A stretch of 64,000 bases of DNA from Eledone cirrhosa. Its lineage: Eukaryota. Positions 4,895 to 57,210 of the stretch are shown here, in pieces. Made by a program: the position numbers and the translations under genes. The notes below the pieces were generated by a model. It saw nothing but the letters and a program-made list of their open reading frames with translations, was not told the DNA's origin and ran no database searches. The DNA lies in contig OZ024741.1 of assembly GCA_964016885.1 (NCBI GenBank), positions 173,662,001-173,726,000 of the forward strand, in the 5' to 3' direction. The first letter of the stretch is position 1, and the number at the start of each line of letters is the position of its first letter.

Positions 4895-5014
4895 CTGTAC
4901 ATCTTCGTCATTACCACTGCTATAATTTTCAACAGCAAAGAATGGTTTTATGATGTGTTTATAGTAGGGTTTCCCAATTAGAAATTCTTCCAGTGCATTG
5001 AACCTCTCCTTCAC
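4895..5014 (-). CDS. Coding exon 8: Roc G5 region
   Basis: TGTTTTTCAG|GTG AAG... translates [40 protein letters not shown]. The donor CAG|GTTTGG is weak, so the 3' boundary is less certain. Confidence 0.82.
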
Positions 5015-56000: not shown

Positions 56001-57210
56001 CAACTTCTCTGCCACCACTATCCCTATCATCAACATTATCCCCATTGCCACTATCATTAAATTCATTCCCCACCACCAGCTTCACCACTACCACACCGTT
56101 GTCAACTTCATCTCCATCACCGCTATCACTAAATTCATCTCTCCTATCAACCTCACCAGCACCACCATGCCAACTTTCAATTTCCCAGTTTTTGTCTATT
56201 AAATTTCACTCAGAGAGAATTGAACAACCTAAGGTTATAATGAAGAAACTTGTCCAAGATACCTGCTACATAGTGGGATTGAAACTAAAACAAGCATTTA
56301 ATTCTTTTGTTACCAAACTACCTCCTGTTTTACGATACAAAACTGTTTATTTTAAAGTGTTTATATTTATCTGAAAACTTTCCATCATAATTTTGTATAA
56401 GAACCTTTGTTAAATTATGTTCCAAGCACCATTTTAATAATGGGGAAGTTATATTACTAAATCCCTACAAATTCTAAATTATTTTCAAAATTATTTGACA
56501 ATTATAGGCAGATTCTTTTATTAGAAAAATGGTAACAAAAGGGTTAATAAAAATTTATTTGAGTAAGCAGAAATGATTATTATCCTTATAGGTTGGACAG
56601 GATGTTTTGAGACAATGTTTTACACCCAGATACCCTTCCTGATGTCAATGCTTTTTAGTCACCTCATACAACATGCAGGGATAGGGTGTATCTATTCTAA
56701 AAGGTGAAACACAGCAAAAAGTAAAACAAATAATTAATTACCTGTAATAACCAATTTGACAGCAGATGTATTTCCATAAAGATCCAACAGGAACCATAAT
56801 TGGACATGTGTTGGTATTCCATTGATAAGAACACCTATGTAGTGATTGTTTACAAACAGTTGTAGCTCTCCCATGGAATTCACATAAAATGTTAGGATAT
56901 GATACGATACAGCAAATTTTTCATTCACTAAACGAGCCCAAAATCCTTCCTGTTTAACGAGGTCGGGATAAAGAAAACGTGGAAGTGTGTGTTGTTCCAG
57001 AAAACACTGTGGATCATTGGATGTTACTCCTATACGTAAAGCACCTTTCCAAGTTGTAATGCAGGTCATTTGAAGAGAGACGCGAACCCCTATTTTCAGG
57101 GGTTGATCACCAAACACAATGCCATCACAGAAGTGCTTCTCGTCACGGTTAGCATGAAGCCGGTTATTTGACAAGGTGACTGCCGATCCATGCACATGGT
57201 GAAATCGCAT
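4895..57210 (-). CDS. Multi-exon gene, 3'-partial: NHR (Neuralized) domain + Roc GTPase domain (ROCO-family protein); coding exons 57210-56742, 43298-43136, 34071-33917, 26316-26189, 25555-25271, 18828-18736, 7233-7048, 5014-4895
   Basis: All eight exons have GT/AG boundaries with matching phases (1,2,1,0,0,0,0) and join into an uninterrupted 533-codon ORF. It carries an NHR signature followed by Roc G1-G5 motifs in order. The COR domain is expected beyond the left edge. Confidence 0.88.
5790..6310 (-). mobile_element. RTE LINE 3' fragment
   Basis: Antisense of [21 protein letters not shown] RTE C-terminus, ending in a (CAT)n/(TGA)n tail. Confidence 0.8.
6740..7040. repeat. ~19-bp AT-rich minisatellite (AAATTAAAACGATAACAAT-like) next to the exon 7 donor
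   Basis: Roughly 15 degenerate tandem units are visible. Confidence 0.85.
7048..7233 (-). CDS. Coding exon 7: Roc G4 region
   Basis: [25 protein letters not shown]...[24 protein letters not shown], containing the Roc L.YW..SI and PP...VGTH motifs; donor ATG|GTAAGA. Confidence 0.9.
8194..8236 (+). ncRNA. Minimal type I hammerhead ribozyme motif (Penelope-like), imperfect stem II
   Basis: ACAGTC-CTGATGA-AGAGTAATGACCCA-GAAAC-AT-GTT-GATTGT; stem I ACAGTC/GATTGT. Confidence 0.6.
8382..9380 (+). mobile_element. 5'-truncated RTE LINE (RT C-terminus, 3' UTR, (GAT)n tail)
   Basis: ORF segment [38 protein letters not shown]; close paralogue of 50781-51940. Confidence 0.9.
10379..10804. mobile_element. 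Tc1/mariner-type MITE with a nested RTE-tail fragment
   Basis: Perfect 19-bp TIRs CAGGGTGAGTCATAAGTAA / TTACTTATGACTCACCCTG, TA on both flanks; nested repeat with (GAT)n tail at ~10540-10735. Confidence 0.85.
12120..12210. repeat. (TA)n(GA)n microsatellite
   Basis: Direct. Confidence 0.95.
12576..13050. repeat. Compound (TG/TA)n microsatellite
   Basis: Direct; it generates the spurious CVYI-rich ORFs. Confidence 0.95.
13280..14340 (-). mobile_element. RTE LINE 3' fragment with 3' UTR
   Basis: Antisense [14 protein letters not shown] and [12 protein letters not shown], followed by the shared RTE 3' UTR. Confidence 0.75.
15500..15800 (-). repeat. ~48-bp tandem unit within an RTE 3' UTR-derived repeat
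   Basis: Repeated ACAGGGTGGACTGGGTA.TTTTTGTCATGGTACCAGTACTA units; same family as 27155-27600 and 44380-44660. Confidence 0.75.
18180..18690 (-). mobile_element. Old LINE (RTE-like) 3' fragment; second copy at ~30310-30780
   Basis: The two regions align with each other; antisense GRPRT/GGP..W motif. Confidence 0.55.
18736..18828 (-). CDS. Coding exon 6: Roc core strand
   Basis: TTCCTTTCAG|GTA TTT... translates [31 protein letters not shown], continuing the Roc THQ-xFLS-RAIY motif; donor CAG|GTAAGC. Confidence 0.92.
19260..19616 (-). repeat. 3' LTR of Gypsy element
   Basis: TGTTCTGCCAGACCC...AGAGCGCTACA, near identical to 24150-24510. Confidence 0.95.
19981..23054 (-). pseudogene. pol: Gypsy pol (PR-RT-RNase H-IN), several frameshifts
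   Basis: ORFs 22500-23054 (PR), 22087-22473 and 21780-22127 (RT), 21427-21726 and 21251-21511 (RNase H), 19981-21096 (IN). Confidence 0.93.
23054..23100 (-). promoter_or_regulatory. Predicted -1 ribosomal frameshift signal at the gag-pol junction
   Basis: G GAA AAC immediately before the gag TAA, 7-nt spacer, stem GGAGAATCTG/CAGAT(C)TCTCC; loop ATGG is complementary to downstream CCAT. Confidence 0.7.
23091..23847 (-). pseudogene. gag: Gypsy gag (frameshifted)
   Basis: [11 protein letters not shown]..; [34 protein letters not shown]. Split over two ORFs. Confidence 0.88.
24150..24510 (-). repeat. 5' LTR of Gypsy element
   Basis: About 7 substitutions and 2 small indels versus the 3' LTR by eye; minus-strand TATAAA at 24420-24425 and AATAAA at 24270-24275. 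Confidence 0.95.
25271..25555 (-). CDS. Coding exon 5: end of insert and Roc switch II (G3)
   Basis: CTCTCTTTTCCACAG|CCA GAA... ends [19 protein letters not shown], the Roc WDFAGQ..YY.TH signature; donor CAG|GTAAGG. Confidence 0.93.
26189..26316 (-). CDS. Coding exon 4: helical insert inside Roc
   Basis: Polypyrimidine tract + CCAG|GT GGT GTA... translates [43 protein letters not shown]; donor AAG|GTAAGT. Confidence 0.82.
27155..27600 (+). repeat. 48-bp tandem array (~10 units, alternating A/B) in an RTE 3' UTR
   Basis: CACACTGT starts at 27155, 27203, 27251, 27299, 27347, 27395, 27443, 27491, 27539 and ~27587. Confidence 0.92.
28327..28890. repeat. Compound (TA/CA/TG)n microsatellite with ~42-bp higher-order units
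   Basis: Direct. Confidence 0.95.
30995..31715 (-). mobile_element. 5'-truncated RLE-type LINE (R4/Dong-like) C-terminus
   Basis: [18 protein letters not shown] zinc knuckle, [25 protein letters not shown] restriction-like endonuclease, [24 protein letters not shown], then an (AAT)n tail. Confidence 0.9.
31850..32890 (-). mobile_element. Highly decayed LINE reverse transcriptase fragment
   Basis: Remnants in RT order: PSWLKE, YKP, and SSDDTAFL (YADD-like). Heavily degenerate. Confidence 0.45.
33917..34071 (-). CDS. Coding exon 3: Roc switch I (G2) and start of insert
   Basis: TTTACAG|A GAT GAC... translates [51 protein letters not shown]; donor G|GTAAAT; phase 2 in, phase 1 out, matching both neighbours. 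Confidence 0.88.
37776..38003. mobile_element. TTAA-flanked piggyBac-like MITE (partial copy at ~25830-25970)
   Basis: TTAA-CCCTTTAGCATTCA ... TGAACATTAAAGGG-TTAA inverted termini. Confidence 0.7.
40497..40560. repeat. (CA)n microsatellite
   Basis: Direct. Confidence 0.97.
43136..43298 (-). CDS. Coding exon 2: Roc N-terminal helix and P-loop (G1)
   Basis: TTTTAG|AT GAT ACT CCG... translates [53 protein letters not shown]; donor AA|GTAAGA. This frame is not shown in the ORF track. Confidence 0.92.
45040..45920 (+). mobile_element. CR1-like LINE 3' end, partially duplicated around a SINE fragment
   Basis: [34 protein letters not shown]. 45205-45430 is repeated at 45595-45830; (ATT)n tail; the 3' UTR also occurs at ~29480-29645. 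Confidence 0.82.
46700..48320 (-). mobile_element. RTE LINE RT fragment
   Basis: [64 protein letters not shown]. Confidence 0.92.
49380..50560 (+). mobile_element. AT-rich Penelope-like (pLTR) remnant ending in hammerhead + AATAAA
   Basis: Terminal minimal hammerhead followed by a polyA signal; no protein homology recognised in the body. Confidence 0.45.
50495..50539 (+). ncRNA. Minimal type I hammerhead ribozyme
   Basis: ATTGCC-CTGATGA-GTCC(TTAATA)GGAC-GAAAC-ATT-GTT-GGC(T)AAT: intact catalytic core, perfect stem II, stem I GCC/GGC, GUU cleavage triplet. Confidence 0.8.
50590..51940 (+). mobile_element. 5'-truncated RTE LINE with open C-terminal ORF, internally duplicated 3' UTR and (GAT)n tail
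   Basis: 259-aa ORF 50650-51429 ([29 protein letters not shown]); ~115-bp duplication at 51598-51830. Confidence 0.93.
52560..53375 (+). repeat. Six tandem ~106-bp tRNA-like SINE heads followed by one complete SINE body
   Basis: GGC(C/T)TAGT(G/T)G starts at 52568, 52674, 52780, 52885, 52991 and 53100, each with a GGTT(T/C)(G/A)ATT(C/T)C B-box-like motif; the body contains AACCCTGCGATGGACTGG. Confidence 0.85.
53500..53765. repeat. ~22-bp minisatellite (ACACCACATGACACTGTCTGTT); second block at 55045-55200
   Basis: Direct tandem units; the block plus a SINE start is duplicated at ~55130-55265. Confidence 0.85.
56298..56548. mobile_element. TTAA-flanked non-autonomous DNA transposon family (other copies ~11311-11522, 17750-17983, 33400-33635, 34460-34675, 37305-37562, 38840-39100, 39300-39495, 42340-42510)
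   Basis: Termini TTAA(C/T)(C/T)CTTTTG(A/T)TACC ... GGTA(A/T)CAAAAGGGTTAA with shared internal sequence. Confidence 0.7.
56742..57210 (-). CDS. Coding exon 1: Neuralized homology repeat (NHR) domain
   Basis: [73 protein letters not shown] matches the NHR pattern. In-frame TAA lies upstream of ATG 57210. Donor G|GTAATT at 56742/56741; candidate acceptor TTGTAG near 57320 (5' UTR). Confidence 0.9.

Follow-up and report, generated by a model that had tools for sequence, protein, structure and literature searches.

What kind of ROCO protein joins an NHR (Neuralized) domain to a Roc GTPase, and what would such a protein do? The question is raised by a locus of Eledone cirrhosa, whose genome has 3.0 Gb. 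The stretch analysed, here called the window, is 64,000 nucleotides (nt) long (OZ024741.1:173662001-173726000), AT-rich and rich in simple repeats. An earlier note, made from the letters of the window, had described an NHR-Roc fusion in small exons. The complete gene encodes a protein with the domain order NHR–Roc–COR–Death–TIR and a CaaX box at its end. We read it, at a little less than an even chance, as a GTP-gated, lipid-anchored Death–TIR switch with the TIR domain as NADase (an NAD+-cleaving enzyme). The domain string is already known; what is added here is the gene in full, its broad distribution as a single copy, an invariant TIR Glu and an apparently unreported CaaX anchor. The output end (Death, TIR and CaaX), which the earlier note missed, holds both the proposed mechanism and the unreported feature.

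A gene of 21 exons on the minus strand

Eight exons lie in the window (Table 1). The chain was rebuilt from splice signals and phase; with AG acceptors, GT donors and compatible phases it gives 1,599 nt, or 533 amino acids (aa), free of stops, which is exactly the product proposed in the note. Other structural claims made there are borne out. Intron 1 is a phase-1 intron ending at 43298; exon 1 holds one Neuralized domain (Pfam expect value (E) 1.8e-37); and the four exons said to be unseen in the open reading frame track are exons 2, 3, 6 and 8, which have no ATG-started frame longer than 21 aa. The claim of a Roc with regions G1 to G5 stands for G1, G2 and G3, which are canonical, but not for G4 (GTHRN), where Asn481 takes the place of the usual guanine-binding Asp. 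Upstream of the start, at a distance of 22 nt, an ATG in another frame begins an overlapping frame of 22 codons (57232-57164, minus strand); in Argonauta (P0002) the corresponding ATG is in frame and lengthens the protein by seven residues.

The 13.4-kb length of intron 1 would suit an NHR exon that belongs to another gene and is not joined to 43298. However, unspliced exon 1 stops after two more codons, and exon 2 has no in-frame Met ahead of the P-loop strand. The 533 aa align at 86% with Octopus bimaculoides P0001 and at 83% with Argonauta P0002; because the alignment runs unbroken through the NHR-Roc junction, the junction is not due to chance. Two intact relatives on Logan contigs (P0003, 6.3 kb, 1,289 aa; P0004, 4.5 kb, 1,282 aa; 67-69% identity) keep the identical junction, and the contigs are so short that they are best read as spliced transcripts. 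NHR and Roc share one chain in 49 of 61 family rows, as the claim of a single gene requires. The predicted NHR-to-Roc splicing of the Eledone gene is supported by its homologues, and the probability of two separate genes is negligible.

The gene leaves the window at its left edge. When 200 kb on that side are added, tblastn with P0001 finds 13 further exons. The full exon set comes from a splice-site search scored against four homologues, and the borders of exons 9-21 are set by homology. The complete gene has 21 exons across 115 kb and GT-AG borders at 20 of 20 introns; its product has 1,270 aa and ends WRCGACIVL-stop, the 533-aa part being 42% of the whole. The note had looked to this side for COR and for a death, kinase or RING domain. 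COR and Death are found, and with COR downstream of Roc the protein is a true ROCO; there is no kinase or RING, and a TIR domain and CaaX tail are added. The possible signalling or immune role suggested earlier is compatible with the Death and TIR domains, which were out of the note's sight. Full-length identity is 87.7% with P0001, 80.6% with P0002, 46% with a gastropod and 33% with a spider. The P0001 model has intron-like sequence in place of exon 6, probably a mis-prediction.

Genome searches, whose counts are lower bounds, give one match for exon 20 (TIR) and three for the NHR exon, the other two at 42% and 34%; the gene was thus found as an apparent single copy. The NHR/Roc, COR/Death and Death/TIR borders (after aa 156, 918 and 1029) each fall on a phase-1 intron. 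This matches the expectation for exon shuffling, a match that is weak on its own.

The output end and a proposed mechanism

The Eledone protein ends CIVL-stop, a CaaX box by sequence at the true C-terminus. Cys is found at position -4 in 66 of 74 family rows, followed by an aliphatic a2 in all 66 and a terminal Leu (61), Ile (4) or Phe (1). These rows share ancestry, and such counts describe conservation, not independent events or origins. A second Cys lies at most five residues upstream of the first in 65 of the 66, and Cys at -4 is found in 0 of 59 other ROCO rows. About 80 variable residues precede the box (conservation 0.31, vs 0.71 in the last seven residues). The nearest TIR relatives belong to a sister Death-TIR-TIR family, which has a CaaX box in 59 of 65 rows. 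Here the -4 Cys stands alone in 53 of the 59; only 6 rows have a second Cys, and 36 have three or more Lys or Arg. A CaaL box with a further Cys is the H-Ras type of membrane anchor, and a CaaX box with a basic patch is the K-Ras type. The tails of the family and its sister match these two types in sequence, and prenylation and palmitoylation of the Eledone C-terminus are likely. Of 132 new rows from a wider search, 67 have Cys at -4; many of the others are fragments or bacterial-type multi-TIR proteins.

The sister family (part of P0122-P0193, and P0199-P0222) has a variable N-terminus, a Death domain and two TIR_2 domains, usually both with Glu. It is expanded in echinoderms, amphioxus, molluscs and rotifers, and a sea-urchin member is named 'MyD88-like protein L1'. 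The nearest non-animal-looking TIR relatives are long proteins with 5-7 TIR repeats and a common S-x-x-C-x-x-E motif (P0226, P0260, P0264, P0290, P0302, P0309); one is named from Candidatus Parabeggiatoa.

The terminal cysteines might instead bind zinc through a CxxC knuckle or form a peptide ligand, and the protein would then be a soluble scaffold. CxxC spacing is found in 49 of 55 rows with the motif, and many rows have a conserved hydrophobic stretch (V-H-V-T-K type) ahead of it. Against this, the last Cys stands exactly at -4 in 66 of 66 rows, always with an aliphatic a2 and with Leu, Ile or Phe as the final residue, and the sister family has mostly a lone -4 Cys with added basic residues. 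In oysters the second Cys has moved and CxxC has become CxC, which favours a lipid site over a metal knuckle. The zinc or ligand reading is quite improbable. In print, as judged mostly on titles and abstract starts with subscription journals largely outside, neither a CaaX lipid anchor of the family nor NADase activity of ROCO-TIR proteins was found; the anchor, common to the family and its sister, is apparently unreported.

TIR is the best-conserved domain (0.75), and together with Death it leads the protein in conservation. The TIR is of type TIR_2. Its nearest solved sequences are AbTir, BtTir, PdTir and Cat1; the MyD88 TIR is not among the 13 solved-sequence matches. Glu1107 is invariant (65 of 65 aligned rows) and aligns with the WxxxE Glu of AbTir, BtTir and Cat1. 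According to bioRxiv 2022.05.07.491051, AbTir E208A is inactive, and W204A is weaker and loses cyclisation. The model of the TIR (pLDDT 89) matches Hydra TRR-2 (Z 17.7), SPARTA and SARM1 (both 16.9) and RUN1 (16.8) with root-mean-square deviations (rmsd) of 2.0-2.6 over 121-131 aligned residues; MyD88 follows at Z 15.7. Enzyme activity of the TIR is plausible on this sequence and model evidence.

CaaL with a neighbouring Cys follows the rule for geranylgeranyltransferase I and palmitoylation, as in H-Ras and RhoB. In the proposed switch, geranylgeranyltransferase I would modify Cys1267 (X being Leu) and Cys1264 would be palmitoylated, and the lipid anchor would hold the protein at a membrane, on its cytosolic side. 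There the NHR would recognise a partner through a short peptide, as Neuralized NHR1 does with Delta, and it may be the sensor for the GTPase that the note proposed. As in other ROCO proteins, the nucleotide cycle of Roc-COR would alter dimerisation or oligomerisation, and clustering would unite the Death and TIR domains. Clustered TIR would then cleave NAD+ in the manner of SARM1, with non-cyclic ADP-ribose as the probable product, and the Death domain would bring in partners that have Death domains. The setting is likely to be innate immunity or cell death.

Several points weigh against this lipid-anchored NADase switch. Eight of the 74 family rows have no box: six end within the TIR, and two (an alternative Mya model and a mite protein) are differently ended models. 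The WxxxE Trp is found in 0 of 65 rows (Tyr in 3), and AbTir W204A and SARM1 W638A reduce NADase activity; the same source gives the Trp as required for cyclisation, its mutation lowering and not abolishing NADase activity (bioRxiv 2022.05.07.491051). The Glu is shared by >70% of all TIRs, including those of the non-enzymatic TLR1/2/6/10 (PMC7075850). Hydra TRR-2 tops the fold matches, with the enzymes within Z 1 of it and MyD88 only 2 lower.

The absent Trp and the TRR-2 match would also suit a lipid-anchored adaptor with a non-catalytic TIR. Such a protein would combine MyD88 and a TIRAP/TRAM-like sorting signal in one Roc-COR-gated chain between Toll-like receptors and IRAK/Pelle. Death followed by TIR is the order of MyD88, an Aplysia Death-TIR protein with ROCO domains is classed as MyD88-like (PMC9334734), and arthropod MyD88 is reported to have a C-terminal membrane-binding domain. 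However, the TIR class points elsewhere, as its nearest solved relatives show, and the MyD88 type of TIR without Glu is not what is found: Glu is invariant here and present in <10% of MyD88-group TIRs (PMC7075850). The Death domain is also nearer to p75NTR/NRADD (E 4e-8) than to MyD88 (E 0.0035). The adaptor is possible, if doubtful, and comes second to the NADase switch.

The NADase switch can be set in a wider frame, which we offer only tentatively. There would be an ancient invertebrate-bilaterian clade of TIR NADases that are prenylated, with an H-Ras-type ROCO member and a K-Ras-type sister; among vertebrate rows it was not seen. The ROCO member would be a self-anchored GTPase switch that fires an NAD+-cleaving TIR, a second animal system beside SARM1 and laid out like bacterial Roc-COR-TIR defence proteins. 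Cys1267 in the tail and Glu1107 in the TIR are two single-residue test points. If both roles are true, a ROCO GTPase carries a Ras-like anchor of its own, and its TIR represents an animal enzyme family separate from SARM1. It would bear on infection and cell-death signalling in molluscs and other invertebrates, and on how Roc-COR switches control effectors without a kinase.

Spread of the family and surroundings of the gene

A search with exon 1 gave 239 candidates, with Octopus bimaculoides (96% over the NHR) and Argonauta at the top. Six of these are longer proteins of 1,264-1,302 aa, all with Neuralized, COR, Death and TIR_2 and five also with Roc; all five Pfam domains are above cut-off in P0001, P0002, P0003 and P0005. 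Among the best 120 of 121 matches of a profile search, the top 61 have the family architecture or are partial models of it, and the best 120 of 138 matches of a Death-TIR search add 13 family rows, for 74 in total. Among the matches listed, named rows come from molluscs (cephalopods, gastropods, bivalves, a chiton), annelids, nemerteans, a rotifer, Priapulus, echinoderms, hemichordates, amphioxus and arthropods (spiders, ticks, a mite, a millipede). A centipede, a copepod and an incomplete flatworm model were added when 20 more proteins were looked up. The matches listed name no vertebrate, insect, nematode or cnidarian, but many of the rows are unnamed and absence is not implied. A search of the ESM Atlas (best score 0.84) gave leads only.

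A Roc-COR FastTree was built from 128 of 133 rows and the Eledone protein, with five short-cover non-family rows excluded and one coral ROCO as root. The family forms one clade of 76 leaves, including a truncated sea-spider row, with weak basal support (0.6). Its inner branches mostly track the species tree, which suggests one orthologue since early bilaterians. Amphiura P0063 (NHR-Roc-COR-kinase) falls outside the family clade, and echinoderms recombine related Roc-COR with many other domains.

The note's picture of a little-studied invertebrate class fits this spread. Novelty of the architecture, which the note had left to a search, does not hold: the order NHR–Roc–COR–Death–TIR is listed in Table S10 of PMC5094078, and NCBI uses the name 'neuralized PATS1' in Saccoglossus. 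The prior description that the note had named as grounds for refutation thus exists at the level of domain lists. T1IR33 of that paper is P0240, which is not one of the rows of the Roc-COR tree; it is 37% identical to the Eledone protein over its full length and ends CxxCaaL, and the two belong to the same family as judged by sequence. The listing gives the domain string; the parts of the paper examined hold no lipid anchor, catalytic residue or function, and no function for the string was found in print. Aplysia ROCO-TIR genes are treated in PMC9334734, which suggests a GTPase branch of TLR signalling. One of them, LOC101861518, has Death, TIR and ROCO domains, to which a figure legend adds NHR, and by this description it likely belongs to the family. 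The ecTIR-DC classes of Gerdol et al. 2017, cited in PMC6321704, may treat the family too. In infection nodules of a clam, a 'neuralized pats1' transcript is down 759-fold (PMC4769524 Table 2); the label is database-derived and perhaps denotes another ROCO, and we do not count it as support.

Intron 5 contains a long terminal repeat (LTR) retrotransposon, with minus-strand gag-, protease-, reverse-transcriptase- and integrase-like stretches over several frames. It looks recent and broken, and from its motifs we take it to be of Ty3/gypsy type. Decayed fragments resembling long interspersed nuclear elements (LINEs) and an integrase, presumably of these types by their motifs, lie in the introns and upstream.

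Table 1. Positions of the exons, domains and repeats (window numbering unless OZ024741.1 is given)
Feature	Position	Strand	Content
Exon 1	56742..57210	-	aa 1-156; start codon and complete NHR/Neuralized domain; phase-1 donor
Exon 2	43136..43298	-	aa 157-210; linker helix; Roc G1/P-loop GKDKVGKT, aa 194-201
Exon 3	33917..34071	-	aa 211-262; G2/switch I Thr219; Roc insert begins
Exon 4	26189..26316	-	aa 263-305; Roc insert; long helix predicted in Patella homologue
Exon 5	25271..25555	-	aa 306-400; variable part of insert, then G3 WDFAG (Asp388/Gly391)
Exon 6	18736..18828	-	aa 401-431; Roc strand; missing from O. bimaculoides model P0001, present in P0002-P0004
Exon 7	7048..7233	-	aa 432-493; G4 region GTHRN, aa 477-481
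Exon 8	4895..5014	-	aa 494-533; G5 region AVEN, aa 520-523
Intron 8	1..4894	-	exits window at left edge
Exons 9-21	OZ024741.1:173657695-173603984	-	COR, Death, TIR, variable tail ending CGACIVL-stop
COR	part of exons 9-21	-	~aa 551-915, ending in Cys/His-rich segment
Death, TIR	part of exons 9-21		Death ~aa 945-1028; TIR ~aa 1035-1176 with Glu1107
Phase-1 domain-border introns	56742; OZ024741.1:173621096; OZ024741.1:173617356		7 of 20 introns are phase 1
LTR retrotransposon, intron 5	19311-24517	-	direct repeats 19311-19623 and 24204-24517, 95-98% alike
Decayed LINE-like reverse-transcriptase fragments and integrase-like fragment	8207-8998, 31087-31853, 47961-48362, 50560-51426, 63036-63374		introns and upstream
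Tandem arrays	15526-15795, 27150-27605, 52597-53157		

Roc-COR, NHR and comparison with known systems

Roc and COR-A are over the Pfam cut-off in P0001-3 and P0005, and their exons are present in the Eledone genome. Among the 61 aligned rows, G1 Lys is kept in 58 of 58 rows with the residue, G2 Thr in 57 of 60 and G3 Asp in 59 of 60. A variable Roc insert of about 140 aa lies between G2 and G3 (aa 241-378; conservation 0.38). The G4 Asp is found in 21 of 74 family rows (Asn in 34) and in 17 of 54 other invertebrate ROCO rows; as aligned, the position is loose across the whole invertebrate ROCO group. Spider, tick and millipede members have altered G motifs. In the arthropod members P0006, P0044, P0183 and P0192-P0197, G1-G3 are altered, but the TIR Glu is retained, as is the CaaX box in most of them; these members are possibly drifting toward pseudo-GTPases. 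As the G4 Asp is scarce and these motifs are altered, GTP gating would not be required in every lineage. At the end of COR, aa 862-900 (exons 15-16) form a Cys/His segment with C862, C864 and H883 in 61 of 61 rows and C898 in 60 of 60, which is likely a metal site.

The AlphaFold model of a Patella member (1,074 aa, pLDDT 82, pTM 0.71) has LRRK1 (E 4e-21) and Chlorobium Roco as top Foldseek matches. Its NHR superposes on Neuralized NHR1 (4kg0) with an rmsd of 1.1 A and a TM score of 0.94 on the target. A complex prediction for NHR and Roc-COR (Patella P0033) gave a median of 0.28 against a mark of 0.34 and is counted neither way. Five homologues were scanned with Pfam at E 0.01 and showed none of the LRR, ankyrin or kinase domains of the LRRK, MFHAS1 and DAPK1 subfamilies; scans of five homologues likewise found no RING, SOCS box or other ligase domain.

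This NHR could point to membrane trafficking or the handling of Notch ligands. It would bind Delta-like tails, and one chain would do what LRRK2 and NEURL4 do in trans. In sequence it is far closer to Drosophila Neuralized NHR1 (113 bits, E 1e-31) than to NEURL4/KIAA1787 (36 bits), and the 4kg0 match agrees. LRRK2 ROC binds NEURL4 NHR3-4, with an influence of GTPase mutants on binding (PMC4565672), and single-copy descent along the species tree is unlike that of fast-expanding immune receptors. However, the protein has no RING or other ligase domain, and a trafficking role leaves Death and TIR unexplained. It is unlikely, though less so than the zinc or ligand reading of the tail.

The likeness to Drosophila Neuralized lies in the fold and sequence of NHR1. 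The Eledone protein has one NHR and no RING, and by its domain content would not be an E3 ligase. It shares the Roc-COR tandem with LRRK1/LRRK2 and Chlorobium Roco. Unlike LRRK1/LRRK2, it has an NHR in place of LRR/ankyrin, the long Roc insert, no kinase, a Death-TIR output and its own CaaX box; LRRK2 is recruited to membranes via Rab GTPases (PMC9576273). The sea-anemone NG3 (PMC5094078) shares the Roc-COR-Death-TIR core but has a kinase and SH3 instead of the NHR, and no row of its type is among the named matches listed in the family and Death-TIR searches. With MyD88 the protein has in common Death followed by TIR; it differs in TIR sequence class and in the Glu. Bacterial Roc-COR proteins with TIR effectors have also been described (PMC8195603). 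With SARM1, AbTir, BtTir, Cat1 and SPARTA it shares the TIR fold and the position of the catalytic Glu in helix aC. Unlike SARM1 and the bacterial TIR NADases, it has no WxxxE Trp, ARM or SAM, and clustering would have to come from Roc-COR, Death and the membrane.

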